Under the pieces are notes generated by a model. It saw nothing but the letters and a program-made list of their open reading frames with translations, did not search any database and was not told where the DNA came from. Position numbers and translations under genes: made by a program. From Bacteroidales bacterium (GTDB lineage: Bacteria > Bacteroidota > Bacteroidia > Bacteroidales > VadinHA17), in assembly GCA_025358455.1 (NCBI GenBank), contig JANYJP010000133.1:10852-74851 (forward strand): a stretch of 64,000 nt of DNA, written 5' to 3'. How positions within the stretch are numbered: the first letter of the stretch is position 1; each line of letters opens with the position of its first letter. Below, in pieces: positions 16,062 to 46,760 of the stretch.

Positions 16062-16111
16062 AATTAATTATTAAAAATATTTTTCCGGGGCATGCTTTGG
16101 CATGTCCCTTT

Positions 16112-16486: not shown

Positions 16487-16638
16487 AAGGAATTAATTTA
16501 AAATCAACAGGAACAAATTTATGATTAAATTGGAAATAATTGAAAAAGATTAATAATTATTGGCAGCAATAAATGATGCCTGAACTAATTGTTTTGCGCT
16601 ATCAACAAGATTAGTAAATTTGCAGACATTGAAAGACA

Positions 16639-20767: not shown

Positions 20768-22189
20768 TTAAAGAAGGTTTTTTACAGCTTCCTGAATAAG
20801 ATTAATCATCCCTGATGGAGGATTTATTCCTAAATAAAATACCAGCGCTAAAAGAAAATACTGAGTCAATGTTTCTGAAGGATTTGGTTTTTCCTGAGCA
20901 GGAAGCAGATCTTTCGTCTGGTTAAACAAGATATATAAAAAGTTTTTTGCCAGGCTGTACATTGCAATTGAAAGAAAGAACAATACCAGTATAAAAATGA
21001 AGATGTGTTCAGATGTAAACAAAGCTTTAAATATCCAGAATTCAGTTACAAATAAACCAGATGGAGGCATAGCCGTTATTGAAATTAGTATCAATAGAAA
21101 GACCAGAGCCCCGGGCAGATTTCTGTTAAAGTAATTTCCGGTTTCATTGATCATATACGTTTTGAAATTGCGGTGAAACTGGTCAATCTGATAGAAAACG
21201 CTCGCTTTCACAAATGAGTGAAGTATCATATGAAAAATAGCTGCAAAGTAGCCTATGCCTCCTGAAGCGATCCCTATTGCTGCCAGGCCCATGTGTTCAA
21301 TGCTTGAATAGGCGCTCATCCGTTTCAGATGAGTCACTTTTAACAGATAAGCTGCTGAAACAATTATGGAAATCAGGCCGCATAAAAATAATATAGTGTT
21401 CATCCATGGCAGGATAGATGTATGAGCAAAAATTGAATAAGTGCGAAAGATGGAAACGAATCCTACATTCATCAGTGTGGTTGAAATAAATGCGCTTATA
21501 GGAGGAGGAGCCACAGTATGTGCGTCAATTGCGGCGGTGTGCATCGGGAAAAGACCCATCTTTGTACAAAAGCCGACTATCATAAAAAGAAAAATCATTT
21601 TCAGCCATGATGTATTTACACGAAGCAACTGAGCCGGAATTGCATTAAATGAGAAATTGGTTATTTCTGTTTCACCAATGGCAATACTTAACAGGATGAT
21701 ACCGATAAAAGTTATTGTTATTCCAATGGAACATATAAATACATATTTCCATGTTGCTTCAAGAGAAAGTGGAGTCCGTTCATGATATATTAACACTGCG
21801 ACACTCAGTGTAGTCAATTCAATAAAAACCCACATTACCCCAAGGTGTGAAGCCAGATAGGCACAAGTCATTACAATTATCAGCATAATCAACGCTGCAA
21901 AGTAAAAGCTTTGAGAACGGCTGCTGTCTTTCCTGTGCTTAAGATAGATGAAGCTATGATAAAAAGTTGTAAAACTTAATATTGTAAGCACACACAAAAA
22001 TATAACCCCAAGAGCATCGGATTTAAAATATCCGGAACTTATTTCATTCAGATGAAAGTATGCGTAAACGGTAATGGCTGTTTGTACGGCCAAAAACGTG
22101 CTAAGTAGAATAATGCGAACCATACAGTTTCGGTTGAGCATTGAAACTATTCCTATCAGAAAACCTATAATAAGATAATAACCAAACAT
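20768..22189 (-). CDS. HyfF / NuoN-like antiporter-type membrane subunit (Ehr-like, copy 1)
   Basis: Proton_antipo_M-type polytopic protein. About 14 TM helices. Conserved FIELTTLS, TKMGLFPMH and HSFVKA motifs. Confidence 0.8.
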   Translation of the reverse strand: MFGYYLIIGFLIGIVSMLNRNCMVRIILLSTFLAVQTAITVYAYFHLNEISSGYFKSDALGVIFLCVLTILSFTTFYHSFIYLKHRKDSSRSQSFYFAALIMLIIVMTCAYLASHLGVMWVFIELTTLSVAVLIYHERTPLSLEATWKYVFICSIGITITFIGIILLSIAIGETEITNFSFNAIPAQLLRVNTSWLKMIFLFMIVGFCTKMGLFPMHTAAIDAHTVAPPPISAFISTTLMNVGFVSIFRTYSIFAHTSILPWMNTILFLCGLISIIVSAAYLLKVTHLKRMSAYSSIEHMGLAAIGIASGGIGYFAAIFHMILHSFVKASVFYQIDQFHRNFKTYMINETGNYFNRNLPGALVFLLILISITAMPPSGLFVTEFWIFKALFTSEHIFIFILVLFFLSIAMYSLAKNFLYILFNQTKDLLPAQEKPNPSETLTQYFLLALVFYLGINPPSGMINLIQEAVKNLL

Positions 22190-22194
22190 TTATA

Positions 22195-22824
22195 CTAATC
22201 CTTTAAATTGGTTAAGTTATCAACATTCATCTCCTCAAAGGTGTTCCCTATCCGGTTTACAAAAACACCCAGGACAAGCACACTTACAAATATGTCAAGC
22301 GTTATTCCTGAATTCACAAGCATTGGCATTTTGTTACCTGCCGAAAGGGATAAAATGAATACTCCGTTTTCTATTACCAGGTAACCCATTATATGGGTAA
22401 TAATCTTTTTTCGGGTGATGATAATAAACAACCCTGATAACAATGCAGAAATTGCTACTAAAAAGAACATTTTACGGATATGTACACCGGTTATAATATT
22501 TGACAAAATGAAGGACCCGAGCAGGAAGCAGGTTATAATAACAACAGAAAGAAAATCAGGCAGATAAGGTTGTGCTTCCCTGACGATATTATTCTTTTTA
22601 ATAACATAATTCAGAAATAACGGAATAGCAAGAGTTTTAAAAACAATTGTCTCAAATAAAATAAAAATCAGGTTGATAGTATTGATCTGGATAAGTTCAA
22701 TGAATGATACTCCAAAAAGAATGATTCCCTGCACTGCAAGTATGTTAATATAGGTAGAAAGTCTGTTTGCAATTCCCATGTAAATAAGGCTGATGGCAAA
22801 TGTTATAAGCAGAATATTGACCAT
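22195..22824 (-). CDS. HyfE-like small membrane subunit (copy 1)
   Basis: 209-aa polytopic protein, paralogous to 30883-31515. It occupies the HyfE position between the HyfC-like and HyfF-like genes. Confidence 0.7.
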   Translation of the reverse strand: MVNILLITFAISLIYMGIANRLSTYINILAVQGIILFGVSFIELIQINTINLIFILFETIVFKTLAIPLFLNYVIKKNNIVREAQPYLPDFLSVVIITCFLLGSFILSNIITGVHIRKMFFLVAISALLSGLFIIITRKKIITHIMGYLVIENGVFILSLSAGNKMPMLVNSGITLDIFVSVLVLGVFVNRIGNTFEEMNVDNLTNLKD

Positions 22825-22838
22825 TTATGATTCTCTTG

Positions 22839-23753
22839 TTAAAAATATTTACCCAATATCAGGAGCACAGCAAAAAATATTAATAGCGAAATAGAACTAA
22901 TAGTGAAAATGAACTGAGGATTATGATTCATCCTGAACCTGGCAATGAAGGATTCTAAAGTTCCAACGACAACAGCAAAAAGAGCCTGTACTCCAATAAA
23001 AATTGGAATGGAATAGTACCATTCTCTTCCCGGTGTAAGAAAAAAGTTAGCTATTAAAGCCCCGTACATGGCAAATTTCAGATTGGTGGCATGAAGGATG
23101 AGTCCAAGATCAAATCCACTGTTGTCAAGGACCATAACCTCATGAATCATAGTCAGCTCAAGATGTGTCTTCGGGTCATCAACAGGCATCCGGCTGTTTT
23201 CGATCATAGCAATTAAAACCAGGACGAATGAAGCCAAGATCCCTATAGCGTAGGAAATATACGAACCAAACTGGATGCCACTAAAAATATCTGCGAAGGA
23301 ACTATATCCGGTAAGAAGAGCCAGTGAACCCATAAGAATGAAGAATGCGGGTTCGGCAAGAAAAGAATACAATGCTTCACGACTGGCTCCCATACCTTCA
23401 AAACTGCTACCGGTATCTAAAGCGCCGATAATACTGAAAAATTTGCCTACAGCCAGTATATAGGCAAAAAACACAAAATCACCATCAAACGAGAATATTC
23501 CTTTCTGATTTCCAAAAGGAATTAGCATGATAGCAATCAATACTGAAGCAAAATAAATATCAGGGGCAATTTTAAAAATAAAACTTGTAGTCTGGCTGTA
23601 CACATTTTCTTTCCGTAATAATCGCCAGATATCTTTCATGGGCTGAAAGATGCCGGGACCCTTTCTGCCTGAGAAAATGCTTTTTGTCCGGATGACTATT
23701 CCTAGGAAGAAGAAGCTTGTTATAATGATAAGAATAAAAACTAACCCGGCCAT
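22839..23753 (-). CDS. HyfC / HycD / NuoH-like membrane subunit (copy 1)
   Basis: NADHdh-family pattern including ENSRMPVDDPKTHLELTMIHEVMVLDNSG. 304 aa. Confidence 0.8.
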   Translation of the reverse strand: MAGLVFILIIITSFFFLGIVIRTKSIFSGRKGPGIFQPMKDIWRLLRKENVYSQTTSFIFKIAPDIYFASVLIAIMLIPFGNQKGIFSFDGDFVFFAYILAVGKFFSIIGALDTGSSFEGMGASREALYSFLAEPAFFILMGSLALLTGYSSFADIFSGIQFGSYISYAIGILASFVLVLIAMIENSRMPVDDPKTHLELTMIHEVMVLDNSGFDLGLILHATNLKFAMYGALIANFFLTPGREWYYSIPIFIGVQALFAVVVGTLESFIARFRMNHNPQFIFTISSISLLIFFAVLLILGKYF

Positions 23754-23754
23754 A

Positions 23755-25797
23755 TTACATCTGTTTTATAAGGTTAAACAAATAAGCCGCTATACCACTT
23801 AAAAGCGAAATAATCATGATGATAAATATGAAAATCACCCCGTATAATATATAATAACGCATATTCCCGTTTTGAATAAACCGGACACGCGCCATTATTT
23901 TATTCATGATTTTCAATGGAAAATCAACAAAGGCAGCTTCAATCTTATCATAAGGATGTGTCTCGGAATGAATCGGACTTGAAAATACTCCTTTTATATC
24001 TCCCTCCTTTTTATTCATTAACAGAAACGGTCTAATCAGCTTTCTGTATGAGCGTACATATGAGCTGGCGGTGTATTGCATTTTACTGTTAGGTGCAACA
24101 TAACCGCAAGCCCAGGTTGGTGTTATAACCTCTTTTTTATTACGAAGAACAAATCGTTTTATTGTCGCTATCAATGCAATTGCTAGTATAAATGCCCAGG
24201 TTACCAGGCTTATCGACCGAAGATTATTGCCGATCATTACTGCCGGGAACCCATCCTTTAAACCGGATGTAAATAAACTTACCGGGTTGGTCAGGAGCTT
24301 TAAGATAAGCTGAGGAAACAGTCCGATAAAAATAATAAATATGACTATAAGATAACCAGGAAATAGTTTTGATTTTTCTGCTTCCTTAATATCATTATCG
24401 AACTGGCTTCTTGCCTCTCCAAGAAATATAATGCCAAAAGCCTTTGTAAAACACAGAAGCGCCAGACCTCCTATCAGAGCAAGTCCGGCAATACATAAAA
24501 TACAAAATGTAGTAATTGATAAAGATCCCGAATGGACACCTTCAAAAAGGCCAAGGTAGATCAAAAACTCTGAAACAAATCCATTGAATGGCGGCAGGCC
24601 GCAGATAGCCATAGCGGAAACAAGGAACAGGAAAGCTGTATGTGGCATTTTTTTGATCAAACCTCCCATACTGTCGATATTTAATGTATGAATTGCCTGA
24701 TAAACTGTTCCGGCCCCGTAAAACAATAATGATTTAAACAACGAATGGTTAAGCACATGCAATAATGCCCCTGCAAAACCGGCAAAAGCCAGGTACGGGT
24801 TTTTTATTCCAATGCCAATCGCCCCGATTCCGATTCCGATTCCGATAATGCCAATATTTTCAATACTATGATATGCAAGCAATTTCTTTAGATTATGCTG
24901 AATAATAGCCAATACCACACCATACACCCCGGATATTATTGAAATAGTTAAAATAATATATCCGATAGTCAGGTAATTCTGGTTCACTAATAGAAGCATT
25001 CTTAAAATACCGAAAATACCCAGCTTGATCATGACCCCCGACATTACTCCTGAAACATGAGCTGGTGCCACAGGATGGGCATATGGAAGCCATGTATGGA
25101 AAGGTACAAAACCAGCTTTAATTGCAAAACCGATAAAAAAACACAGGTACAGGGTAAGGCTAATCAAAGGTGATACTGACGCGCTGTATGCGGTAATTGT
25201 GTTAAAGTCATATGACCCCGTATGCGAACTGATCCATATAAGCCCAATGGTAAGTAATAAAATGCATATATGCGATTGTATCAGGAAGTTGACCGCTGCT
25301 CTTAAAGTTTCCGGTTTTTTGTATTCAAAAATAACCATTATAAACGTCGACAGAGCCATAATTTCCCAGTCATAAAGAAATGCAAGACTGTTCTGTATGG
25401 CAAAAATTCCAATCATACTTGCATGATTGATAATAAAACATACAAAATGCAATGGGATCATTCCGGACTTATTTTCATATTGCTTCATGTAACGCCTGCC
25501 ATAAAGTATGCCGGTAAGAACAGTGAAGTTCATCATTAAAATAAACCAGCCTGAAAGAGCATCTATCCTTATTGGAATTTCGCCAAAAACAGGACCCCCA
25601 TGTATAATTTCAATGTAAGAGTGTCCTAAAACGGCATTGACAGCAACCCATGAACTAATTCCTGCATTAATTATTACGGCGCCAAGAGCAATGTTACCTG
25701 ACCATGCCTCTTTGGAAAAGCTGATAAACAGTATAAATAATGCAGTTACTAAAAGTATGCAGATACTCAAACTCATTTGTGAATGGTAAAATTTCAA
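23755..25797 (-). CDS. HyfB / NuoL-like antiporter-type membrane subunit (copy 1)
   Basis: 680 aa. Motifs WEIMALS, IKAGFVPFHTWLPYAHP and NHSLFKSLLF. The true start may be the internal MSLSICILL. Confidence 0.85.
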   Translation of the reverse strand: MKFYHSQMSLSICILLVTALFILFISFSKEAWSGNIALGAVIINAGISSWVAVNAVLGHSYIEIIHGGPVFGEIPIRIDALSGWFILMMNFTVLTGILYGRRYMKQYENKSGMIPLHFVCFIINHASMIGIFAIQNSLAFLYDWEIMALSTFIMVIFEYKKPETLRAAVNFLIQSHICILLLTIGLIWISSHTGSYDFNTITAYSASVSPLISLTLYLCFFIGFAIKAGFVPFHTWLPYAHPVAPAHVSGVMSGVMIKLGIFGILRMLLLVNQNYLTIGYIILTISIISGVYGVVLAIIQHNLKKLLAYHSIENIGIIGIGIGIGAIGIGIKNPYLAFAGFAGALLHVLNHSLFKSLLFYGAGTVYQAIHTLNIDSMGGLIKKMPHTAFLFLVSAMAICGLPPFNGFVSEFLIYLGLFEGVHSGSLSITTFCILCIAGLALIGGLALLCFTKAFGIIFLGEARSQFDNDIKEAEKSKLFPGYLIVIFIIFIGLFPQLILKLLTNPVSLFTSGLKDGFPAVMIGNNLRSISLVTWAFILAIALIATIKRFVLRNKKEVITPTWACGYVAPNSKMQYTASSYVRSYRKLIRPFLLMNKKEGDIKGVFSSPIHSETHPYDKIEAAFVDFPLKIMNKIMARVRFIQNGNMRYYILYGVIFIFIIMIISLLSGIAAYLFNLIKQM

Positions 25798-25921
25798 TAA
25801 GATAAAAGTCGCAAATGCAACTTTTGTAAACTTTCTTAAAAGTATGTAAAGTGGTTGAATAACACAAATTATTTATTAAATTCGCACCCTGTTTAAAACA
25901 GCCGGTTGAACTAATCAAAGC
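25798..25921. promoter_or_regulatory. 124-bp divergent control region shared by the two Hyf/Ehr-like operons
   Basis: This is the only non-coding DNA between the two divergently oriented first genes. It is AT-rich. Specific promoter elements were not confidently identified. Confidence 0.4.
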
Positions 25922-27946
25922 ATGATGTTTTATGAGGGTAAAGAATTAATTGGTCTTTTATTCAGATTATATGTAATAGTCTTGTTTTCAGGGATAATTG
26001 TGCTCCCGTTTATTCCTCTAAGATTTAAGTCAATCATTAGTATCATTTCTGTTTTCCTAATCGCATTAATTACCAGTTTTATTGCCTTAAATGGATTTTC
26101 AGGCGACGGAATTGAATTTTTGGTCAACGGTGGATCATTTTTCGGTGAAATTCCTTTAAGAATTGATGCCCTGGCGGCATGGTTTATTCTGATAATCAAT
26201 TTTACATCTGTTACAGGGGTATTATATGGTGCGGGATATCTTAAATCATCAACTGTTCACCCTTCTGTAATTAGTTTCCATTGGATCTTATATATTGTAT
26301 TTCAATCATCGATGCTGATAGTGTGCATGGTGCAGCACAGTATAGCATTCATACTGGCGTGGGAGGTTATGTCGTTGTCGTCATTATTCCTTGTGTTATT
26401 TGATTATACGAATCCTAAAGTGCTTAAAGCAGGAATAAACTATCTTGTTCAGATGCATCTGAGTGTAGTTCTCTTAACAGTTGCATTTATCTGGGTTTAT
26501 TTCAAAACCGGCACTTTCGACTTTAAAGGTATAAGTGTATTTTTTGGGTCGAACCCGAACATCTGGCTATTCTTGTTATTCTTCACCGGATTCGGTTTGA
26601 AGGCTGGATTTATTGGATTACATACCTGGTTGCCGCAAGCCCATCCTGCTGCTCCATCACACATTTCAGGAGTTATGTCAGGGGTTATTGTTAAAATGGG
26701 GATTTTTGGTATTTTCAGGATAATAGCCTGTCTGAAAGCCGATTATATTATCCTTGGAGAGATTATTATAACGATATCATTATTAACCGGCCTGTTCGGG
26801 ATAATGAATGCTGCTGTTCACAGGGATTTCAAAAAAATGCTGGCCTATTGTACGATAGAAAATATAGGTATAATAGGTATTGGTATCGGCCTTGGACTGA
26901 TAGGTATGGGCACAGGACAGGGTTTATTGAGTTTTCTTGGATTTGGTGGTGCATTACTGCATGTGCTTAACCATTCGTTATTTAAGTCACTTCTCTTCTA
27001 TTCCGCAGGCTCAGTTTACCGGCAGACTCATACCCGCGATATGGATAAACTAGGTGGATTAATAAAGAAGATGCCAAAGAGCGCTTTATTATTTCTTACC
27101 GGTGCCATAGCTATCGGAGGTATCCCTCCACTCAACGGATTTATTTCTGAGTTTTTGATCTATTGCGGGATTCTTAATGGCATAAATTCTGCTGGTATTT
27201 CGCAGATAACTTTAATGGTAATATTATTTGCAGGTCTCAGTATGATAGGTGGCATATCGTTACTTACTTTTACAAAGGCTTTCAGTACTGTCTTTTTGGG
27301 AACACCTCGTCAGGAATTGAAACACGAACCGGTTGAAGTTTCATTGTTAATGCTTTTACCGCAATATTTTATAGTTGCTGCAATGATTATTATCGCTTTT
27401 TTCCCCGGCTATTTTATTGGGATTATTGGAACTGTGCTTAATAATAATACATTCAATAGTGTCAATTTCAATATTCCTGATTTGCAAAGATATATTGGAA
27501 TACTTAAGAATATTAGTCTGGCTTCATTTCTGTTGATTGCAGTTATTGGTTTTGTATTTCTACTCAGATGGTTTTTTACCAGAGGGAGTGAAGTAAAATA
27601 TTCTTCTACATGGGGTTGTGCATATCCTGCAGCCGGAGACCGGATGCAATATACAGGCAAGTCCTTTTCAAAATCATTCGGGAAACTCTTTAATTTTTTA
27701 ATGATTGAGAAGAAGGGGTATGATGAAATCAGACAAGATGAAACTTTTCCTGAGTCACGAAAGTACCGGTCGTTTTATATCGATATTTTTGAAGCTAAAA
27801 TAATAGGTCCGGTGATGCATCAGATTACACGATTTATCAATCTTTTCCAGTTTATTCAGAATGGGAAGATCCAGGCATATGTTATCTATGGTATCGTATT
27901 TATTCTTGCTATCTTTATTGGAACAATTTTAAACCTTTGGCATTGA
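25922..27946 (+). CDS. HyfB / NuoL-like antiporter-type membrane subunit (plus-strand copy B1, most divergent)
   Basis: 674 aa. Motifs WEVMSLS, LKAGFIGLHTWLPQAHP and NHSLFKSLLF. Confidence 0.85.
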   Translation: MMFYEGKELIGLLFRLYVIVLFSGIIVLPFIPLRFKSIISIISVFLIALITSFIALNGFSGDGIEFLVNGGSFFGEIPLRIDALAAWFILIINFTSVTGVLYGAGYLKSSTVHPSVISFHWILYIVFQSSMLIVCMVQHSIAFILAWEVMSLSSLFLVLFDYTNPKVLKAGINYLVQMHLSVVLLTVAFIWVYFKTGTFDFKGISVFFGSNPNIWLFLLFFTGFGLKAGFIGLHTWLPQAHPAAPSHISGVMSGVIVKMGIFGIFRIIACLKADYIILGEIIITISLLTGLFGIMNAAVHRDFKKMLAYCTIENIGIIGIGIGLGLIGMGTGQGLLSFLGFGGALLHVLNHSLFKSLLFYSAGSVYRQTHTRDMDKLGGLIKKMPKSALLFLTGAIAIGGIPPLNGFISEFLIYCGILNGINSAGISQITLMVILFAGLSMIGGISLLTFTKAFSTVFLGTPRQELKHEPVEVSLLMLLPQYFIVAAMIIIAFFPGYFIGIIGTVLNNNTFNSVNFNIPDLQRYIGILKNISLASFLLIAVIGFVFLLRWFFTRGSEVKYSSTWGCAYPAAGDRMQYTGKSFSKSFGKLFNFLMIEKKGYDEIRQDETFPESRKYRSFYIDIFEAKIIGPVMHQITRFINLFQFIQNGKIQAYVIYGIVFILAIFIGTILNLWH

Positions 27947-29964
27947 TTAATATTCTAATTATCATATTATTATCATCCATCATCTCTGTGCTGTTTGTCA
28001 GTACAAAAAGTAAAGGTATTATTACAGTTGCAACAGTAATTGTCATTGCGTCCCTCAGCAGCTTTTTTTCAATAAAAGCGCTCTTTGGTGAAAGTTATCA
28101 GGTTGTTTTATCAGGAACAATAATGTTTGGAAAAGTGCCGGTAATTATTGATTCTTTATCCGCATGGTTTATACTTACAATTAATTTCACAATTGTGACC
28201 GGCGCTATGTATGGTTTTAATTATATGAAAAAGTACAGGGAAAAGAAGAATGAGATCACACTACACTGCATCGCTTTCCTGCTGGTTTATTTCGCATTAT
28301 TGGGAATAAGTTCTGTTCAAAACGGATTTATCTTTCTTTTACTATGGGAATTAATGGCGCTTTCAGCTTTTACTCTTGTAATATTTGAACACGAAAAACC
28401 TGAAACAATTAAAGCCGGGCTTAATTATCTTATTCAATCACATTTCAGTATCGTTTTCATAATGCTGGGGTTTATATACGTTGCTTTCAAAACAGGAAGT
28501 TACGGGTTTGATGCAATTGTTAGTTTTTCGGGTAATCAATCAGTGCTGGCAGGAACAGTGCTTTTTCTCTGCTTCTTTATAGGTTTTGCTATAAAATCAG
28601 GTTTCGTTCCCTTCCATACCTGGCTTCCTTATGCTCACCCGGCTGCACCTACACATGTTTCCGGAATAATGTCCGGTGTTCTTATTAAGATTGGTATTTA
28701 TGGTATCCTCAGGATGTTACTGTTAATCAGAACCGACTACACTACAATTGGTTATATAATATTGTTTATATCATTATTTACAGGGATTTATGGCGTAATG
28801 CTGGCTACTATCCAACACAACCTTAAGAAGTTACTTGCATACCATAGTGTCGAAAACATTGGTATAATAGGAATAGGAATAGGATTAGGTTGCATAGGAT
28901 TAGGGTCATCAAATAAATGGATGGCAATATTAGGATTCTCCGGTGCATTACTTCATACATTGAATCATTCATTATTTAAATCTCTTCTGTTTTACAGTGC
29001 CGGTAATATTTATCAGGCGGCTCATACACTAAATGTGGAGCGCTTAGGTGGATTAATTAAAAAGATGCCACAAACTGCTGTTCTGTTCCTGGTTGCTTCG
29101 ATTGCCATTTGTGGACTGCCACCTTTGAACGGTTTTATCTCGGAATTTCTTATTTATGGGGGGTTGTACAATTGGCTTTACAGCGCAAATCTGATTTCAC
29201 TCATAGCAATAGTGTTTTCAATAGGTGGATTAGTATTGATAGGAGGTCTGGCACTACTCTGTTTTACAAAAGCATTCAGTATCGTGTTCCTTGGAAATTC
29301 ACGAGAGAAACATGATGATGAAATTTACGAAACAGGTTTCTGGCAGTTATTCCCGATGTATCTTACGGTTTCGTTAATGATATTAATTGGCCTGTTCCCG
29401 TCTTTTTTCATAAATGCATTAAAACGACCTGTTGCCCTTTATTTGCAGAGTGCAGTTTTTGACCAGAATATTATTAAGGTTGGTGTAGTTGATTCGCTTC
29501 AGACTATTAGTTGGTTATTCTTCGGACTTATATTATTTGTATTAGTTATTGTTGGACTAAGAAAACTTATTACCAGGAAAAAAAATATTGAAATTGGATC
29601 AACCTGGGGTTGTGCTTATAACAATCCAACGAGTAAACTACAATATACAGCCAGTTCTTACGTCCGCAGTTACTCAAAACTTGCTAAACCTCTTCTGGAT
29701 ATAGAGAAAAATGAGGTCGGGATTGACGAGGTTTTTCCGGCAGAGAAACATTATGAAACAGATCCTTATGATAAAATTGAGCGCATTTTTATTGACAAAC
29801 CATTAAAACTGATAAACAGGATTACCGATCCGTTTCTATTTCTTCAGAATGGACGTTTACAGACATACATTCTGTATGGAATTATCTTTATTGCCTCTGT
29901 AATTGGCCTTCCTCTTATTATTGAAAAGATAATATCAATTTTTCATTTTTTAAATAATTTGTAA
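27937..29964 (+). CDS. HyfB / NuoL-like antiporter-type membrane subunit (plus-strand copy B2)
   Basis: 675 aa. The TTG start overlaps the upstream stop by 10 nt. Motifs WELMALS, IKSGFVPFHTWLPYAHP and NHSLFKSLLF. This is the closest paralogue of 23755-25797. Confidence 0.85.
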   Translation: MALINILIIILLSSIISVLFVSTKSKGIITVATVIVIASLSSFFSIKALFGESYQVVLSGTIMFGKVPVIIDSLSAWFILTINFTIVTGAMYGFNYMKKYREKKNEITLHCIAFLLVYFALLGISSVQNGFIFLLLWELMALSAFTLVIFEHEKPETIKAGLNYLIQSHFSIVFIMLGFIYVAFKTGSYGFDAIVSFSGNQSVLAGTVLFLCFFIGFAIKSGFVPFHTWLPYAHPAAPTHVSGIMSGVLIKIGIYGILRMLLLIRTDYTTIGYIILFISLFTGIYGVMLATIQHNLKKLLAYHSVENIGIIGIGIGLGCIGLGSSNKWMAILGFSGALLHTLNHSLFKSLLFYSAGNIYQAAHTLNVERLGGLIKKMPQTAVLFLVASIAICGLPPLNGFISEFLIYGGLYNWLYSANLISLIAIVFSIGGLVLIGGLALLCFTKAFSIVFLGNSREKHDDEIYETGFWQLFPMYLTVSLMILIGLFPSFFINALKRPVALYLQSAVFDQNIIKVGVVDSLQTISWLFFGLILFVLVIVGLRKLITRKKNIEIGSTWGCAYNNPTSKLQYTASSYVRSYSKLAKPLLDIEKNEVGIDEVFPAEKHYETDPYDKIERIFIDKPLKLINRITDPFLFLQNGRLQTYILYGIIFIASVIGLPLIIEKIISIFHFLNNL

Positions 29965-29965
29965 A

Positions 29966-30871
29966 ATGTTAAGTATAATACTAATACTATTCACCAGCAT
30001 TTTCTTTACAGGGATAATCATCAGAACCAAAAGCATCGTTTCAGGTAGAAAAGGCCCCGTTATTTTGCAGCCAGTTAAAGATGTGGTCAGGTTATTTAAA
30101 AAAGGTGCTATTTACAGTGAAACAACAAGTATTATTTTCAGAATAGCCCCGGTAATCTACTTTTCCACAGTATTTATGGCTTGCCTTGTTGTTCCGTTTG
30201 GATCATATAAGGGCATTGTAAGTTTCGACGGAGATTTTATTTTCTTCGCATACATTCTTGCTTTAGGTAAATTCTTTAGCATTATTTCAGCTATGGATAC
30301 GGGAAGTAGTTTTGAAGGGATGGGGGCAAGCCGTGAAGCATTATTCTCAATGTTTGCCGAACCTGCCTTCTTCATTCTTATAGGTTCTTTTGCTCTGTTT
30401 ACCGGCAATACATCATTCCATAATATCTTTTCAACATTACATCTTGGCTCGTCAATAACGTATATGTTGGGAGGACTGGCCGCTTTTGTATTGCTGATGA
30501 TTTCAATGATCGAAAATAGCAGAATGCCTGTGGATGACCCCAAAACCCATCTTGAACTAACTATGATCCACGAGGTTATGATACTTGATAACAGTGGTTT
30601 TGATCTTGGTTTAATACTTTCAACCGGATACCTTAAATTTGCAATGTATGGAGCAATTATTGCTGATTTCTTTATAGGCGGATTATTCCTGATTTGGGCT
30701 ATTCCTTTATTTTTAATGATACAGGTACTATATGCAATAATGATAGGGTTAATTGAATCCTTTATGGCTCGCTTCAGAATGAACCATAACCCTCAGTTTA
30801 TATTGACCCTTTCGTCGGTCAGCTTTCTAATCTTCCTGGGCGTGCTACTTGTTTTGGACAAATTTGTTTAA
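29966..30871 (+). CDS. HyfC / HycD / NuoH-like membrane subunit (copy 2)
   Basis: 301 aa. About 70% identical to 22839-23753 over a hand-counted 146-residue stretch. It carries the same ENSRMPVDDPKTHLELTMIHEVM motif. Confidence 0.8.
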   Translation: MLSIILILFTSIFFTGIIIRTKSIVSGRKGPVILQPVKDVVRLFKKGAIYSETTSIIFRIAPVIYFSTVFMACLVVPFGSYKGIVSFDGDFIFFAYILALGKFFSIISAMDTGSSFEGMGASREALFSMFAEPAFFILIGSFALFTGNTSFHNIFSTLHLGSSITYMLGGLAAFVLLMISMIENSRMPVDDPKTHLELTMIHEVMILDNSGFDLGLILSTGYLKFAMYGAIIADFFIGGLFLIWAIPLFLMIQVLYAIMIGLIESFMARFRMNHNPQFILTLSSVSFLIFLGVLLVLDKFV

Positions 30872-30882
30872 TATTTTATATA

Positions 30883-31515
30883 ATGACAAACGTCTTATTA
30901 ATTATATTCATTATCAGCCTTTTATATGTTGCAATTGCTAACAGGATCATTACCTATGTGAGAGTTCTTGCGTTGCAGGGATGTCTGCTCTTTGGCGTTA
31001 CATTCCTTCAGTTGCGTGAAATACAGACATGGAACCTGGTCCTTATCCTGCTCGAGACTATTGTTTTTAAAGCCGTGGCTGTTCCGGTATTTTTGGGTTA
31101 TCTGATTAAGAGAAACAAGATTACCAGGGAAACTGAACCTTATTTGCCGCACTTCATCTCACTGATAATAATTACAATGATTGTAGTTATAACGGTCCTG
31201 CTCGCGAATTCAATACAGGATACCCATCTTGATAAAATATTCTTCATAGTATCTCTCTCAACTCTATTTACCGGGTTGTACTTCATAGCCACAAGGAAAA
31301 AGATTATTACACATGTTATGGGATATCTGATGATTGAGAATGGAGTTTTTGTTCTCTCCCTGGCAGTCGGTAACGAAATGCCAAACCTTGTCAACCTGGG
31401 TATAATGCTTGATGTATTTGCCAGTGTATTGATACTGGGGATTTTCCTCAACAAAATAGGTGATGTTTTTAAAGATGTTGATGTTGACAAGCTTACCAAT
31501 TTGAAAGATTATTAA
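30883..31515 (+). CDS. HyfE-like small membrane subunit (copy 2)
   Basis: 210 aa, a paralogue of 22195-22824. The shared C-terminus is ...KKIITH.MGYL.IENGVF.LSL...LTNLKD. Confidence 0.7.
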   Translation: MTNVLLIIFIISLLYVAIANRIITYVRVLALQGCLLFGVTFLQLREIQTWNLVLILLETIVFKAVAVPVFLGYLIKRNKITRETEPYLPHFISLIIITMIVVITVLLANSIQDTHLDKIFFIVSLSTLFTGLYFIATRKKIITHVMGYLMIENGVFVLSLAVGNEMPNLVNLGIMLDVFASVLILGIFLNKIGDVFKDVDVDKLTNLKDY

Positions 31516-31526
31516 TCACTGAAATA

Positions 31527-32954
31527 ATGACTTTGATATATCTGATATGTGCTTTTGTAATTGCCGGATTACTTTTGATAAACAGGAATACTGTTTTAAA
31601 TTATATAATGGTTATTCTCTTTGGTATTATTCAAACCGGATTTACTATCTACGCAGGGTTTCATTATAAAAATACAGTTTTAGAATATTTTTCTTTCGAT
31701 TCTTTAGGATTGCTTCTTCTGGTTGCTTTGAGCATTGTGACTATTCCAGCCCTTATTCACAGCTATTTGTATATTAAAAGGCACAATGAGACACCCCAGT
31801 CCAGGGCTATATATTTTTCAGCAATTGTCATCCTTTTAACGTCAATCAGCGCTGCTTATCTTGCCAACCATATTGCTGTTATATGGATTTTTACAGAGAT
31901 GACAACATTATCGGCTTCTATGCTGATTTATCATCACAGGAATAAACTTGCATTGGAGGGAACCTGGAAGTATGTGTTTATATGTGCAATAAGTATCACT
32001 TTTGTTTTTATCGGGATTCTTTTTCTAAGCCTTTCGCTTCAGCATGCCGGATCAACTGATCTCTCTTTTTCCAACCTGATGGCTCATAAAGATCAGCTGA
32101 ACACATTCTGGCTTAAACTGGCATTTCTTTTTATTTTTACAGGTTTTACAGCAAAGCTCGGATTGGTCCCGATGTATACAGCTGGTATAGATGCAAAGGA
32201 TAAAGCGCCAGCCCCTGCAGGTGCTTTACTTGCAAGCGTACTGATGAATCTTGGGTTTGTCGGAATATTCAGGTTCTATGCAGTTATTGCTCATACATCT
32301 ATTTTTCACTGGGCTAATCTGATCATCTTTTTTGCGGCTTTTATTTCAATATTTGTTGCAACTGTATACATGACTAAGGTTATGAATATTAAAAGAATGT
32401 TAGCCTATTCCGGAATTGAACATATGGGTATTGTAATGCTTGGAATAGCAGCAGGGGGAATTGGCTATTATGCAGCTATTCTGCATATTATATTGCACAC
32501 TTTTGTGAAATCGGGTATATTTTTTCAATACAATCAGTTATACAGAACGTTTCAGAGCAAAAGTATTCAGCACGTGGGCAACTATTTTAAGTATAATCCC
32601 ACAGGAGCAATTGTGTTGCTTATAGGGTTTATAAGTGCAACTGCTATGCCCCCTTCCGGATTGTTTGTAAGTGAGTTCCTGATCTTCAAATCACTCTTTG
32701 ATGGCAACTATATAGTGTTACTGGTTCTTGTATTACTTTTATTGACGATTGTTATATGGGCCTTTGGAAAGAATATCTTGAAAATTCTGTTCCTTCCCGT
32801 GCCTGATATAGATGAGAGTAAAATACCAAAAATAAGCCCTTGGGAATCATTAACTCAGTATGTATTGATGTTTACAGCAATCTGGCTGGGACTAAATCCA
32901 CCGGCAATATTTGTTCAGTTAATTCAGGATGCAGTTAAAATCTTACCTAATTAA
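31527..32954 (+). CDS. HyfF / NuoN-like antiporter-type membrane subunit (copy 2)
   Basis: 475 aa. Motifs FTEMTTLS, AKLGLVPMY and HTFVKS. Confidence 0.8.
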   Translation: MTLIYLICAFVIAGLLLINRNTVLNYIMVILFGIIQTGFTIYAGFHYKNTVLEYFSFDSLGLLLLVALSIVTIPALIHSYLYIKRHNETPQSRAIYFSAIVILLTSISAAYLANHIAVIWIFTEMTTLSASMLIYHHRNKLALEGTWKYVFICAISITFVFIGILFLSLSLQHAGSTDLSFSNLMAHKDQLNTFWLKLAFLFIFTGFTAKLGLVPMYTAGIDAKDKAPAPAGALLASVLMNLGFVGIFRFYAVIAHTSIFHWANLIIFFAAFISIFVATVYMTKVMNIKRMLAYSGIEHMGIVMLGIAAGGIGYYAAILHIILHTFVKSGIFFQYNQLYRTFQSKSIQHVGNYFKYNPTGAIVLLIGFISATAMPPSGLFVSEFLIFKSLFDGNYIVLLVLVLLLLTIVIWAFGKNILKILFLPVPDIDESKIPKISPWESLTQYVLMFTAIWLGLNPPAIFVQLIQDAVKILPN

Positions 32955-32955
32955 A

Positions 32956-34455
32956 ATGAGCTTCATAACAATAAAAAACCATCAACCAGTTCCGGTTAAC
33001 ACAATACCGGAACTAGAGTATGATATATTTTATAATCTAAATATATCCTTGCTCGCGGAACATCCTGAAAGACATTGCGTTTTGTATTTTGGTTACAGGG
33101 TGCTTGATGTAATACGACTAATGTGTTGTGTTGCAGATGATATTCAGCATAATATCCTGATTTCTTCTTCGATTGTCAGAAGCGATTCCAAACTCAATTC
33201 TTTTTCTGCAAAAAACCTTTCTTTCGAAAGATTTGAACGCGAAATTCATGAAAACTTCGGTATTGATTATATCGATCATCCATGGCTAAAACCGGTTCGT
33301 TATTCTGAATATAGGATTGATAAATCCAAGACGATTCATAACTATCCGTTTTTCAGCATTGAAAGTGAAGAACTTCATGAGGTGGGAGTAGGGCCGGTGC
33401 ATGCAGGTATAATAGAACCCGGACATTTCAGGTTTATATGTAATGGCGAACAGATATTGCATCTTGAAATTCAGTTAGGTTATCAACACAGGGGCTTGGA
33501 ACAATTACTCCTTGATAAAACAAAACTAATTCAGCGAACTACCTTGGCTGAATCCATAGCAGGCGATAGTGTTATTGGCCATACAACAGCATTTGCATAT
33601 TTATTAGAAAGCCTCAGCGGAACAGTACCTGAGAGTGAAGTCATCTATTCACGAACACTTGCACAGGAACTGGAACGAATTGCGGTTCATACCGGCGACT
33701 TAAGCGGAATTTGCACCGATGTTGCCTATCAACTGGGTAGTTCTGTATTCGGAAGACTCAGAACCCCAATAATCAATTTTTTCCAGGAATGGTGCGGGAA
33801 CCGTCTGGCTAAAGGATTAATCCGTACCGGTTACAACCCATTTCCATTTAGCAAAGCTCTGTCTGAAAGGTTAACTACAATATTAGATGCATTTGAACCA
33901 GATTTTGTTGAAATGAATGGCGAGCTTTCAAAACTACCAAGCTCTTTATCGAGATTTGAGAGAACCGGCACCTTGAAATATGATCAGTTATTGTCAATCG
34001 GCACAGTTGGAATGTCAGCCAGGATGAATGCCCTGAACAGGGATATAAGAATGTCGCACCCTTATGGCAGATATCCTGAGTTAAATCACGAACCAATTCT
34101 AAAGCATCATGGTGATGTATATTCAAAAGTACAGATCAGAAAACAGGAGGTATTGCAGTCAATAGAATATATAAGGAAATGGTTGAATCAGATTCCTGAA
34201 TCAACAAAGACTCAACCTCAACCAGTTACTCTGAAGCCTGATTTATTTGCAATCTCTCTGACAGAAGGGTGGAGGGGTGAAATATGCCATGCTGCCGTGA
34301 CAAACAATAAAGGTGAACTGGTGATTTATAAGATTAAGGATCCTTCGTTCCACAACTGGCTTGCGTTGGCATTATCGGTAAGAAACAATGAAATTTCTGA
34401 TTTCCCGGTAATTAATAAAAGTTTTGATTTGTCGTATTGCGGACATGATCTTTAA
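32956..34455 (+). CDS. NuoC-NuoD / HycE-like 'large subunit' homologue lacking [NiFe] ligands (EhrL-like)
   Basis: The ATG at 32956 lies 1 nt after the upstream stop. There is a NuoC-like FERFEREIHENFGI...HPW segment and then GPVHAGIIEPGHFRF...YQHRGLE, as in HycE. The metal-ligand motifs are mutated: SIAGDSVIGH instead of RVCGICGFAH, and DLSYCGHDL* instead of DPCYSCTDR. Confidence 0.8.
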   Translation: MSFITIKNHQPVPVNTIPELEYDIFYNLNISLLAEHPERHCVLYFGYRVLDVIRLMCCVADDIQHNILISSSIVRSDSKLNSFSAKNLSFERFEREIHENFGIDYIDHPWLKPVRYSEYRIDKSKTIHNYPFFSIESEELHEVGVGPVHAGIIEPGHFRFICNGEQILHLEIQLGYQHRGLEQLLLDKTKLIQRTTLAESIAGDSVIGHTTAFAYLLESLSGTVPESEVIYSRTLAQELERIAVHTGDLSGICTDVAYQLGSSVFGRLRTPIINFFQEWCGNRLAKGLIRTGYNPFPFSKALSERLTTILDAFEPDFVEMNGELSKLPSSLSRFERTGTLKYDQLLSIGTVGMSARMNALNRDIRMSHPYGRYPELNHEPILKHHGDVYSKVQIRKQEVLQSIEYIRKWLNQIPESTKTQPQPVTLKPDLFAISLTEGWRGEICHAAVTNNKGELVIYKIKDPSFHNWLALALSVRNNEISDFPVINKSFDLSYCGHDL

Positions 34456-34473
34456 ACCTAAAAGACAAAAACG

Positions 34474-35226
34474 ATGTTAAAGACATTACAAATTCTGTAT
34501 CATCAGGGCAAACAATACATTCCGGATCTAAGAAAAGCAAAAGTTCCCGGAATATTCAGGGGTCGCCCTGAAATCAGCTCTGAAAAAGTTGACGAAAAGA
34601 CTTTAGCGGATATTTGTCCGACAAATGCAATTTTGGGAAATCCTGTAAGGATTGATCTGGGTAAGTGTACTTTTTGTGCAGAATGTTCAAGGCTTTATCC
34701 TGGTAAAATTCATTTTACTACAGATTACAGGATGGCTGTAAATGAAAGAGAAAGGTTGATAATTTCTGAAGGTGTTTTAACCCCGATTACACTGAACCCC
34801 GGTCTGATAAGAAATGAAATTCATAGATTATTTCATGGATCTCTTAAGCTCAGGCAGGTTTCAGCAGCAGGTGACAATAGTTGTGAACTGGAGCTTAATG
34901 CTGCAGGAAATGTAAATTTTGATATAGGTCGGTATGGAATAGAGTTTGTTGCATCACCCCGTCATGCTGATGGGATTGTGATTACCGGACCTGTATCCAA
35001 AAACATGGCTGAACCATTACAGATTACTTATGATGCCATACCGTCACCTAAAATAATTATTCTCGTGGGGACTGATGCAATAAGCGGCGGTATTTTTGAT
35101 AGCAGCCCGGCACTTGACAGAAGATTTATTGAGGAAAACCATATTGATTTGTATGTACCAGGGAATCCGGCTCACCCGCTAACTTTCATAAATGGGATAA
35201 TGGATTTATTAGGAATAAACACCTAA
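34474..35226 (+). CDS. fused HycF(NuoI)-like half-ferredoxin + HycG(NuoB)-like 'small subunit' with degenerate cluster ligands (EhrS-like)
   Basis: The N-terminal part reads FRGRPE...ADICPTNAI...CTFCAECSRLYP. The C-terminal part has the Oxidored_q6-type SPRHADGIVITG motif. Its cluster motifs are altered to GDNSCELE, GTDAISGGIF and PGNPAHP. Confidence 0.75.
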   Translation: MLKTLQILYHQGKQYIPDLRKAKVPGIFRGRPEISSEKVDEKTLADICPTNAILGNPVRIDLGKCTFCAECSRLYPGKIHFTTDYRMAVNERERLIISEGVLTPITLNPGLIRNEIHRLFHGSLKLRQVSAAGDNSCELELNAAGNVNFDIGRYGIEFVASPRHADGIVITGPVSKNMAEPLQITYDAIPSPKIIILVGTDAISGGIFDSSPALDRRFIEENHIDLYVPGNPAHPLTFINGIMDLLGINT

Positions 35227-35671: not shown

Positions 35672-35725
35672 CACCCTGTCTGCCGGCAGGCAGGGTGCAT
35701 TTTGCATTTTTACTTTTTACTTTTG
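35672..35725 (+). terminator. putative rho-independent terminator
   Basis: The near-palindrome caccctgtctgcc/ggcaggcagggtg has one mismatch. It is followed by a T-rich tract, cattttgcatttttactttttacttttg. Confidence 0.4.
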
Positions 35726-41738: not shown

Positions 41739-41796
41739 TTTATTTAAGATAAATGAGCTTGTTTTATTTAATTTTGCTTGTTCTCACTCCTTGCGC

Positions 41797-46752: not shown

Positions 46753-46760
46753 TCTCTAAG

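Follow-up and report, generated by a model that had tools for sequence, protein, structure and literature searches.

The closest described systems are the Ehr (Ech/energy-converting-hydrogenase-related) complexes. The ehr cluster of Geobacter (GSU0739-45) comprises seven genes, and its subunits have been detected by proteomics and increase on formate, a hint that at least one Ehr has a redox link. The statement of the initial annotation that this class is known purely from comparative genomics was too narrow in this respect. For Bacteroidota, no description of an Ehr was found in the searchable literature.

The window analysed here is a 64,000-nucleotide stretch of a Bacteroidales genome. Positions 20768-35226 carry 11 contiguous genes in two divergent arms, and by Pfam and NCBIfam profiles only complex-I / formate-hydrogenlyase-type subunits are encoded there. 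The divergent complex-I-like locus proposed in the initial annotation is real by these assignments and by the open reading frames, whose positions agree exactly with those first given. The features are as follows:

20768-22189, minus strand: F_minus, HyfF/NuoN-like antiporter-type subunit, 473 aa (PF00361, E=5e-46), in the orphan 'type II' membrane module
22195-22824, minus strand: E_minus, HyfE-like small membrane subunit with a NuoK-like C-terminal half, 209 aa (HyfE of NCBIfam, E=9e-19, below cut-off; weak PF00420)
22839-23753, minus strand: C_minus, HyfC/HycD/NuoH-like subunit, 304 aa (PF00146, E=4e-31)
23755-25776, minus strand: B_minus, HyfB/HycC-like large antiporter-type subunit, 673 aa (PF00361; HyfB of NCBIfam, 485 bits against a cut-off of 667)
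25777-25921, no strand: putative divergent promoter spacer, 145 bp
25922-27946, plus strand: B1_plus, first HyfB-like subunit, 674 aa (PF00361; HyfB, 459 bits), opening the complete 'type I' Ehr operon
27937-29964, plus strand: B2_plus, second HyfB-like subunit, 675 aa (PF00361), with a 10-nt overlap with B1
29966-30871, plus strand: C_plus, HycD/NuoH-like subunit, 301 aa (PF00146)
30883-31515, plus strand: E_plus, HyfE-like subunit, 210 aa (HyfE of NCBIfam, E=5e-21; weak PF00420)
31527-32954, plus strand: F_plus, HyfF/NuoN-like subunit, 475 aa (PF00361)
32956-34455, plus strand: L, large subunit (fused NuoC-NuoD / HycE-like) lacking a NiFe site, 499 aa (PF00346 and weak PF00329)
34474-35226, plus strand: S, half-HycF/NuoI domain fused to a HycG/NuoB-like small subunit, 250 aa, retaining the ligands of a single [4Fe-4S] cluster

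Two gene starts were assigned by comparison. The open frame of B_minus extends to a TTG at 25797, while the conserved start is the ATG at 25776, which is invariant in relatives ('CAT' in a six-way spacer alignment) and gives the 673 aa also found in them; the spacer is therefore 145 bp (25777-25921) and not 124 bp as annotated at first. The open frame of L begins at 32929, and 32956 is its most likely start (499 aa, the length of database protein P0001, which is 100% identical), so that F and L are separated by a 1-nt gap instead of overlapping by 26 nt. The 10-nt overlap of B1 and B2 recurs in the gene calls of a related locus (L081).

In the spacer, the plus arm has a candidate Bacteroidota-type -7 box, TAAATTCG, at about 25877-25884, while a 22-bp palindrome (25804-25825) lies close to the minus-arm start. 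A block reading ...TTATTAA(A/T)(T/C)T(C/T)GCACCC... aligns in five of six spacers, and a perfect TAGTTTTG is present in the spacer of L082. The spacer had no match in Rfam, and a sigma-70 scan of it gave nothing above chance. Such a divergent promoter region would permit co-expression of both arms.

The flanking genes are unrelated: GGT, an AlkD-type protein and an M49 peptidase are encoded on one side, and GH109-like, MurB and YceG proteins on the opposite side. When the remaining 30 large open reading frames of the window were scanned with Pfam, hyp, fdh and nuoEFG genes were not found, and a tblastn search with the 11 locus proteins turned up neither additional copies nor remnants in the window. 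A 2-oxoacid:ferredoxin oxidoreductase, an example of a ferredoxin-reducing enzyme in this genome, is encoded at 6017-8223. Across about 100 related loci no conserved neighbouring or partner gene was observed, indicating that there is no dedicated electron-input module. The absence of feeding and maturation genes noted initially thus extends from the window to the surroundings of the operon in these relatives.

The plus arm, B1-B2-C-E-F-L-S, has the same number of genes as the Geobacter ehr cluster and encodes three antiporter-like subunits (B1, B2 and F), a NuoH-like C, a NuoK-like E and a two-protein cytoplasmic head, L and S. At least 584 stretches of species-representative genomes contain relatives of L, and the best 80 are almost all from Bacteroidota. 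The best PDB match of L in both sequence and fold is HycE (7z0s_E), with a fold match spanning 497 columns. HycE has four NiFe cysteines, whereas L has none: the aligned positions are A211, S214, S502 and G505, and 0/4 cysteines are present in the window and in 80 orthologs (81 sequences). The quinone His and Tyr of complex I are likewise missing from L, with Nqo4 H38 and Y87 aligning with Ile and Gly. The motifs GD[TS]VVGH and F[ND]LSYxGHDL are almost unchanged across the 81 sequences; D213, G505 and D507 are invariant in 80 readable sequences, H218 is present in 80/81 and H506 in 78/80. Six other cysteines of L are also conserved (C50, C171 and C262 in 81/81; C66, C67 and C453 in 80 of 81).

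In S, PF01058 covers residues 136-245 and a weak Fer4 match covers 59-72. Alignment with MbhJ and HycG places the proximal-cluster cysteines at D134, C137, D201 and N231, so that this site, which adjoins L, reads D-C-D-N with one of four cysteines left. D134 is invariant, D201 and N231 are present in 77/78 sequences, and C137 is kept in 71/78. The remaining cluster is formed by C48 (77/78) and C65, C68 and C71 (78/78), and of the three ancestral Fe-S clusters, S retains the middle one alone. All-Cys relatives carry the ancestral two CxxCxxCxxxCP motifs and four proximal-cluster cysteines, from which S has lost three cysteines of ferredoxin motif 1, the fourth of motif 2 and three of the four proximal ones. 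The initial report of no intact 2x[4Fe-4S] subunit is borne out, with just C48 (CP motif) and C65xxC68xxC71 left. Among fused S proteins the loss is graded, from three clusters (Nitrospirota, Nannocystis) through two (Cloacimonadota) to one in the clade of the window; one-cluster S proteins also occur in other clades with different replacements, and the N-terminal four cysteines are kept almost everywhere. The L'S' proteins of type II operons show the same loss of NiFe, quinone-site and cluster residues. AlphaFold gave a poor model of S (pLDDT 45).

The assignment to Ehr holds on all testable features, namely the HycE/NuoCD-type L, 0/4 NiFe cysteines, the seven-gene set and the lack of maturation and input genes. 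A genuine hydrogenase-4 / formate hydrogenlyase-2 (Hyf) with partner and maturation genes elsewhere in the genome would fit a gene order like hyfBCDEFGHI and automatic annotations as 'Ni,Fe-hydrogenase III' subunits or 'hydrogenase-4 component F', but the window and 78-81 orthologs lack all four NiFe and three of four proximal-cluster cysteines, the NCBIfam scores all fall far short of their curated cut-offs, and hyp and fdh genes are missing from the window. Hyf identity is refuted at the ligand level and has almost no probability.

The membrane subunits keep most of their key charged residues. All five antiporter-like subunits retain Glu in TM5 and TM12 and Lys in TM7 and TM11. The best PDB matches of B2_plus are MbhH (6cfw_H) and HycC (7z0s_C), with E, K, K, K and E aligning in TM5, TM7, TM8, TM11 and TM12, and the Mrp antiporter structures 6z16 and 7qru were also among the matches in this search. 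F_plus, whose best match is the NuoN homolog NdhB (6hum_B), keeps the key residues and has Asn at the TM8 position. C_plus matches HycD best (7z0s_D, E=2e-23); its TM5-6 loop keeps E, R, P, D and the final E-L, with two Glu replaced by K and H. E_plus had no sequence match in the PDB, and the carboxylates of the E subunit are kept (the 'IENG' Glu and the 'LDIF' Asp).

A decaying relic, with the minus arm or the whole locus non-functional, might be suspected from the lost cofactor ligands and from a second module without L'S' genes. This is contradicted by 11 intact reading frames, dN/dS of at most 0.08 in all 11 genes of both arms against three relatives (0.03-0.08 for F_minus), conserved functional residues and recurrence of the module in many lineages, and decay is hardly credible. 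The catalytic subunits had initially been called 'dead'; near-invariant replacement motifs and strong purifying selection (dN/dS ≤0.08) indicate instead that L and S are remodelled.

The identities between the arms are 68% for C/C, 58% for E/E, 53% for B2_plus/B_minus and 47% for F/F, and 44% for B1/B2 within the plus arm, indicating that the divergence between the arms is old, without recent copying. F_minus has relatives in about 40 database clusters at ≥69% identity. Of 50 related operons, 43 have B1, six have a single B and one has three. At all 11 evaluable loci, including the window, the orphan B-C-E-F module has either a full operon or a lone L-S pair as its neighbour: it is divergent to the full operon in the window, L081, L082, L087, L094 and L105, follows S in tandem in L049, L092, L095 and L097, and is faced by L-S alone on the 15-kb contig L088. 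In L095 a chimeric L'/S' deletion remnant lies behind the orphan F, and in the syntenic relatives L003, L005 and L009 the minus arm is absent at the same chromosomal site. These comparisons indicate that the minus arm stems from a full operon, B-C-E-F-L'-S', which is paralogous to the plus arm and has since lost L'S', and not from a partial duplication of the plus arm as first thought. The divergent layout recurs in relatives, as a synteny check proposed initially was meant to establish, but it is merely one of several layouts that keep both systems adjacent. Very probably, then, the plus arm encodes a complete, self-contained Ehr-type complex and the minus arm the B-C-E-F membrane half of another Ehr operon ('type II'), an ancient paralog that has lost its head genes in this lineage.

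The minus arm might alternatively be an autonomous four-subunit Mrp-like antiporter working without the L-S head, its adjacency being a leftover of tandem duplication. Even without L'S' of its own, the module has stayed intact and under purifying selection, Mrp antiporters function without a peripheral arm, and the adjacency of the two systems could partly reflect such an origin. However, the adjacency outlasts at least three rearrangements (divergent, tandem downstream, facing a lone L-S) at 11/11 evaluable loci, and L088 pairs the module with L-S only. In addition, the orphan module has a NuoH-type subunit, of which Mrp has no homolog, and the cytoplasmic loops of C_minus, DTGSSFEGMGASREAL and MIENSRMPVDDPKTHLELTMIHEVM, are identical to those of C_plus despite 68% overall identity. 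Type I, type II and orphan modules all share these loops in near-invariant form, so that any C could dock the same head. An autonomous antiporter is accordingly a rather unlikely reading.

The reading that we prefer, at a probability of roughly 0.45, is that two alternative ion-translocating membrane modules use one common L-S head with a non-catalytic or gating role. Judged from residue conservation, electron transfer by the head would have been abandoned, the NiFe site, the entry cluster and the exit (proximal) cluster all being gone, and the sole surviving middle [4Fe-4S] cluster would probably be structural or redox-sensing. The former proximal-cluster and NiFe sites would now be lined by invariant Asp/His/Asn, located where complex I and hydrogenases pass charge changes to the NuoH-type subunit, and these residues form a putative protonatable or cation-binding trigger site. 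The near-invariant cluster cysteines, the six further cysteines of L and the conserved L site would fit unrecognised catalytic chemistry equally well.

A rival reading is a ferredoxin-driven redox pump like MBH, MBS or Ech, with an acceptor that is not known, in which reduced ferredoxin would pass electrons through the single [4Fe-4S] of S to a substrate bound where the L/S site has been remodelled, with ion pumping driven by this reaction. In its favour, the family hardly varies at the cluster cysteines, which almost all distant fused S proteins also retain, and the L motifs around the former active site are near-invariant as well. By residue conservation the membrane arm is fully competent to pump, formate raises the Geobacter Ehr proteins, and the genome has ferredoxin-reducing enzymes such as the one at 6017-8223. 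Against this, the ancestral wire is missing at both ends, L has neither a NiFe site nor the quinone-binding Tyr/His, and no conserved partner gene was found. Judging by the geometry of complex I, moreover, the distance between the middle cluster and the L pocket is too large for electrons to pass directly. We regard such a pump as doubtful, to the same degree as the autonomous antiporter.

Ion-gradient-driven chemistry at a new metal site, with Asp/His of L or D-C-D-N of S binding Zn, Fe or Mn, is a distinctly more remote alternative; examples would be vectorial CO2/bicarbonate conversion, as in cyanobacterial NDH-1/Cup or DAB, or metal handling. The invariant or near-invariant residues of L and S all lie at former metal sites, and in other systems CO2 hydration is known to be powered by PF00361-type subunits. 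However, the proteins are not homologous to CupA or DabA, Pfam finds no carbonic-anhydrase-like or other catalytic domain, and a conserved partner gene is again missing.

A complete Ehr-type operon beside a headless second membrane module is an arrangement for which no account was found in the searchable literature, in line with the initial annotation, which knew of no description of the divergent arrangement with a second membrane arm. Under the shared-head reading, the machine would be an ion-gradient-driven (Mrp-like) or ferredoxin-gated cation/proton translocator and not an oxidoreductase. The second membrane set, intact but headless, probably shares the single head module, and one L-S head docking on either C subunit would give alternative complexes with three or two antiporter-like subunits, which may differ in stoichiometry or ion preference.

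The eleven ORFs of the locus (window 20768-35226) were found exactly where the initial annotation had placed them, and Pfam and NCBIfam profiles confirmed a complex-I or formate-hydrogenlyase module for each. All NCBIfam scores of the 11 proteins were far under the curated cut-offs, indicating a divergent family that is neither Hyf nor Nuo proper. In the following assignments, the plus arm is a type I operon (B1-B2-C-E-F-L-S) and the minus arm is a divergent B-C-E-F module without a head, the head being L plus S.

B_minus (minus strand), B1 and B2 (plus strand): HyfB-like, PF00361, about 675 aa
C_minus (minus strand) and C_plus (plus strand): HyfC/NuoH-like, PF00146
E, one on each strand: HyfE-like
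F, one on each strand: HyfF/NuoN-like, PF00361, about 475 aa
L, 32929-34455, plus strand: fused NuoC-NuoD/HycE-like large subunit, PF00346 (E=2e-29)
S, plus strand: small subunit with a ferredoxin-like N-terminal half and a NuoB/HycG-like C-terminal half

The start of L is most likely at 32956, giving 499 aa and matching P0001, a database protein 100% identical to L; residue numbers for its NiFe positions refer to a 508-aa frame. The spacer between the two arms, annotated as 124 bp, was corrected to 145 bp by the conserved ATG of B_minus at 25776. No hyp, fdh or nuoEFG genes were present in the rest of the 64-kb window, in agreement with the annotation, and no further copies of the locus's subunits were detected elsewhere in it. 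Among PDB entries, the best matches came from E. coli FHL-1 (HycBCDEFG, 7Z0S), with HycE for L (7z0s_E, E=4e-31), HycD for C and HycC for B; MbhL also matched L (E=2e-28), and L is a homolog of the group 4 [NiFe]-hydrogenase large subunit and NuoD. HycE and L also share the fusion of a NuoC-like domain to the large subunit. S matched MbhJ first and HycG second, and MbhH, MbhL and MbhJ from the Pyrococcus furiosus MBH (6CFW) and MBS/Mbx (6U8Y) group were among the top matches to the locus proteins. HycE was also the top Foldseek match of the AlphaFold model of L, which was of moderate quality (pLDDT 61); the model of S was poor (pLDDT 45).

The cofactor sites of both head subunits have been rebuilt. 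When aligned to HycE (7z0s_E), the four NiFe cysteine positions of L are A211, S214, S502 and G505 (0/4 Cys), and over 81 L sequences they read A/T/S, T/S (one C), S and G; the L1 (RxCGxCxxxH) and L2 (DPCxxCxxH/R) metal-binding motifs of group 4 [NiFe]-hydrogenases are both absent from L. The quinone-binding residues H38 and Y87 of T. thermophilus Nqo4 are replaced by Ile and Gly (alignment to 2fug_4). In S, aligned to MbhJ and HycG, the proximal-cluster positions are D134, C137, D201 and N231 (1/4 Cys), and the ligands of cluster N2 in the NuoB homolog are likewise reduced to 1/4 Cys. The N-terminal half of S has just C48 (in a CP motif) and C65xxC68xxC71 left. In ferredoxins, exactly one [4Fe-4S] cluster is held by the CP of motif 1 together with three Cys from motif 2, and by this logic the cluster left in S is the equivalent of the middle cluster, N6b in complex I.

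These ligand patterns hold over 78-81 orthologs from other species, in which the replacement motifs are nearly unchanged (GD[TS]VVGH and F[ND]LSYxGHDL in L; GDNSCE, GTDAISGG and PGNPxHP in S). L and S had been described as dead catalytic subunits; the loss of the NiFe and proximal ligands stands, but the near-constancy of the replacement motifs indicates subunits that are remodelled and constrained, not dead. Six cysteines of L unrelated to the NiFe site (C50, C66, C67, C171, C262 and C453) are kept in at least 80 of 81 orthologs. The pair C66-C67 was considered as a general substitute for cluster N2 and was rejected because the distant orthologs L108 and L111 (L001-L111 denote related loci in other genomes) read G-M at this position.

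A search with S against 1.8 billion representative proteins revealed a graded cluster series among fused small subunits. Those of Nitrospirota and Nannocystis carry two full ferredoxin motifs and four proximal Cys (three clusters), the Cloacimonadota form carries a single N-terminal cluster plus the proximal cluster, and the window's clade, together with several other clades with different substitutions, carries the N-terminal cluster only. The closest all-Cys fused S proteins were from Nitrospirota, Cloacimonadota and Myxococcota; in contrast to the nearest of them with three clusters (Nitrospirota, Myxococcota), the window's S is without proximal [4Fe-4S] ligands and has one ferredoxin-type cluster.

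The membrane subunits retain the complex-I-type core, with homologs of NuoH, NuoK and NuoL/M/N and the conserved Lys/Glu chain. The TM5 Glu, TM7 Lys, TM11 Lys and a TM12 Glu are present in 5/5 antiporter-like proteins, the TM8 Lys is present in all three B and replaced by Asn in both F, and each E has two NuoK-type carboxylates. In both C proteins the cytoplasmic loops still have their Arg, Glu and Asp, although two Glu of the TM5-6 loop are Lys and His in this family. In complex I and FHL, it is these loops of the C-type subunit on which the head docks. Here they are the same in C_plus and C_minus and near-invariant in type I, type II and orphan modules, so that the comparison is uninformative about co-adaptation to a shared head.

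Relatives of L were found on at least 584 stretches in GTDB species-representative genomes, and the best 80 of these at least 584 stretches were almost all from Bacteroidota (Bacteroidales, Prolixibacteraceae, Paludibacter, Lentimicrobiaceae, Chitinophagales). The clade also accounts for thousands of metagenomic protein clusters, and Draconibacterium is among the genera with relatives. Among the 50 loci with enough upstream sequence, the order B-B-C-E-F-L(-S) was observed in 43, a single B in 6 and three B in 1, indicating that the count of HyfB-like subunits is plastic. The three-B case is L053 (a Paludibacter sp. MAG), which reads B-B-B-C-E-F-L-S. When 608 neighbouring ORFs from about 100 loci were clustered, no gene family recurred outside lineage-specific synteny, which reached at most 8 loci, so that a dedicated electron-input or maturation partner is absent. 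At L015 (2108-2833) and five other Prolixibacteraceae-type loci, the type I operon is preceded at about 120-160 bp by a divergent gene for a Crp/Fnr-family regulator (cNMP_binding plus HTH_Crp_2); this gene is restricted to that sub-lineage and absent from the window. In the close relative L081 (1359-2265), the plus-arm C gene is broken into ORFs of 231 aa and 81 aa, either by a frameshift or by a long-read assembly error.

F_minus has relatives at 69% identity or more in about 40 database clusters, and their genomic contexts showed that the minus-arm B-C-E-F belongs to a second operon type, type II (B-C-E-F-L'-S'). Complete type II operons are present in L084/L085 and L099, and in L090/L091 a type II operon is followed directly by a type I operon. 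The ligand pattern of L' and S' is the same as that of the window's L and S. In the complete type II operon of L084/L085, an ORF encoding a PF05635 protein (23S rRNA intervening-sequence protein, 12990-13340) lies between L' and S', and a reverse-transcriptase gene lies downstream (15457-16539). The locus had been annotated as partly duplicated; a paralogous second membrane set is indeed present, but the 42-68% identity within paralog pairs points to an old duplication, and the module derives from a distinct type II operon.

A module without its own L'S' adjoins a type I operon or an L-S pair in 11/11 evaluable cases, window included, in the following arrangements.

Divergent from type I: the window, L081, L082, L087, L094 and L105
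Tandem, after S: L049, L092, L095 and L097
Facing a lone L-S pair: L088, where the pair lacks adjacent type I membrane genes

The lone L and S of L088 are 80-81% identical to those of the window. Regarding conservation of the layout F-E-C-B / B-B-C-E-F-L-S, the divergent pairing thus recurs in five loci, but the others are tandem or have L-S only. At 11495-12034 in L095, after the orphan F, lies a chimeric ORF of 179 aa that joins an L' fragment (VGHSTAFA) to S' residues ~91-250 (the C-terminal two thirds); this ORF is what an in-frame deletion has left of the L'S' genes. No L'/S' remnant was found downstream of F_minus or anywhere in the window. In the close syntenic relatives L003, L005 and L009 (GH109, type I operon, GGT/AlkD/M49), the minus arm is missing from the same chromosomal site, indicating that the module is an accessory that may be present or absent. 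Against L081, L087 and L088, dN/dS was 0.02-0.08 in both arms with dS saturated (above 1), out-of-frame artefacts having been discarded for B_minus vs L087 and L vs L001; both arms are under strong purifying selection. A true hydrogenase is excluded by the ligand data and a decaying relic by the selection data. We are highly confident of the identity and evolutionary origin of the locus as an Ehr-type (energy-converting-hydrogenase-related) operon joined by the membrane half of a type II operon.

Ehr has been described as a class related to group 4 hydrogenases, without CxxC motifs and with no known function, and has been reported in Geobacter sulfurreducens (GSU0739-45), Nitrospira, Sulfobacillus and Margulisbacteria. 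In the Geobacter operon, NuoL-like EhrA-1 and HyfE-like EhrC are followed by EhrL and EhrS, and the Ehr proteins were detected in this organism, with levels rising on formate. Like the plus arm, Ehr has seven genes, with NuoL/HyfB-, NuoH-, HyfE- and HyfF-like membrane subunits plus L and S, and no hyp genes attached. The locus shows large-subunit homology, absence of both NiFe CxxC motifs and an operon with a NuoB-type small subunit, and the initial proposal of Ehr as the best fit was borne out in gene content, L homology and CxxC absence, the published Ehr being compared by description. Unlike Ehr as described, the locus has a second, head-less membrane module attached. The literature search found no Ehr or Hyf description in Bacteroidota and, as the initial annotation had supposed, none of the divergent arrangement with a second membrane arm.

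By their defining features, group 4 hydrogenases, complex I, MBS/Mbx and Mrp all differ from the locus. The gene order is Hyf-like (FHL-2, hyfABCDEFGHI), but compared with FHL-1 and FHL-2 the locus has no NiFe site, HycB/HyfA, formate dehydrogenase or maturation genes, HycF and HycG are fused, and two of three clusters are lost; the metal motifs and the four-Cys proximal cluster that mark group 4 [NiFe]-hydrogenases (Hyf/FHL-2, Ech, MBH) are both missing. With complex I (NDH-1) it shares the architecture of NuoH, NuoK, NuoL/M/N, NuoCD and NuoB/I homologs, but not the cluster-N2 ligands, the quinone Tyr/His or NuoEFG. MBH and MBS are ferredoxin-linked complex I relatives whose published structures contain a full three-cluster wire and a Mrp-type Na+ module (MbhA-G; MbsA-G in MBS). 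MBS resembles the locus system in having descended from a hydrogenase and lost H2 production, but the locus has one cluster motif only, and no Mrp-specific Pfam families occur among its 11 proteins. Alternative membrane modules on a common core have a parallel in cyanobacterial NDH-1L and NDH-1MS, in which NdhD/NdhF paralogs are swapped, whereas the duplication seen here is not confined to the distal antiporter subunits and takes in the entire membrane set, with the NuoH-like subunit.

Mrp (Mnh/Pha; 6Z16, 7QRU), which carries out transport without redox chemistry, is proposed as a functional analogue. Its MrpA/MrpD-type subunits have the same Lys/Glu chain as the locus and are accompanied by a NuoK/MrpC-like subunit. 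Families MrpB, MrpE, MrpF and MrpG are, however, missing from the locus proteins, and a NuoH-like subunit and an L-S head, both absent in Mrp, are present. An autonomous Mrp-like role of the minus arm seems unlikely to us, and would be orthogonal to any question of ferredoxin use. The sharing of one L-S head by both membrane modules, to which the 11/11 association points, is rather probable.

The spacer and the remaining window contain further features of possible relevance.

25804-25825: near-palindrome of 22 bp, AAAAGTCGCAAATGCAACTTTT, shortly upstream of the minus-arm start
35672-35697: strong GC-rich hairpin (11 bp) with a T run after it, separating the end of S from a convergent gamma-glutamyltranspeptidase gene; probably a bidirectional terminator
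40494-42486: PHO4 phosphate transporter gene and PhoU-like gene
45067-52918: complete system for K+ uptake (kdpA, kdpB, kdpC, KdpD-type sensor kinase, OmpR-type response regulator), some 10 kb downstream of the locus
6017-8223: two-gene 2-oxoacid (indolepyruvate-type):ferredoxin oxidoreductase (POR_N + TPP_C, then POR gamma domain)
247-1713: 488-aa protein, nearly all ankyrin repeats

Proteins built almost wholly of ankyrin repeats are uncommon in bacteria. The palindrome site reads AAAAGCCACAGATGTGACTTTT in L087 and L105, with changes on both half-sites, and could be an operator or a small hairpin. A sigma-70 promoter scan gave 65 sites against 57.7 expected, a chance level from a model that is wrong for Bacteroidota, and the promoter and operator proposed in the spacer are candidates at the level of sequence patterns. 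No Rfam family matched in the window or spacer, and thus no riboswitch clue to a ligand or ion was obtained.

The 2-oxoacid:ferredoxin oxidoreductase is a possible source of reduced ferredoxin, although its genes are not conserved beside the operon in other genomes. Together with the one cluster surviving in S, it would suit a ferredoxin-driven pump, a reading that names no acceptor; with the clusters at both ends of the wire lost, we regard such a pump as improbable. The most economical reading is that the head carries out no electron transfer, because the wire has lost its entry and exit clusters, neither the NiFe site nor the quinone site survives, conserved partner genes are lacking and the pump arm is intact. 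At the head/NuoH interface, the invariant Asp, His and Asn of the two former metal sites would then act as a trigger that is protonatable or binds cations, and the surviving cluster in S may be structural or a redox sensor. The same invariant residues might instead hold a new metal site for gradient-driven chemistry, which we consider very unlikely. The complex with the trigger would be a gradient-driven or ferredoxin-gated cation/proton translocator, and one L-S head would serve both membrane modules, yielding complexes with three or two antiporter-like subunits. For this mechanism as a whole, we infer a probability of about 0.45.

Only tentatively do we extend this to a general proposal, namely that the locus represents a widespread complex I superfamily member without any electron transfer, whose cofactor-poor NuoCD/NuoB-type head, with carboxylate/His replacing the NiFe site and cluster N2, may be a protonation-, cation- or ferredoxin-gated trigger of an ion-translocating arm and exchangeable between two membrane modules. 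Two features appear to be undescribed: a small subunit with one cluster and a D-C-D-N site, which is the rule across a very large clade of Bacteroidota, and a head-less paralogous membrane module kept beside a head-encoding operon in all evaluable cases.

To our knowledge, Ehr has been an orphan branch of the complex I/hydrogenase superfamily since about 2005, without a known substrate or role; Ehr complexes are often cited as evolutionary 'missing links'. This very large clade of Bacteroidota combines a pristine pump arm with an electron wire interrupted at both ends, which sharpens the question to whether a complex-I-type coupling machine is able to run without redox chemistry. The head-less module beside a head-encoding operon, together with one decaying head remnant, offers a natural genetic handle on pump-arm exchange, and such modular exchange bears on the evolution of complex I, NDH-1 and Mrp and on the tuning of pumping stoichiometry. 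If the proposal is true, no 'redox-free complex I' with exchangeable pump modules would have been known before this one.
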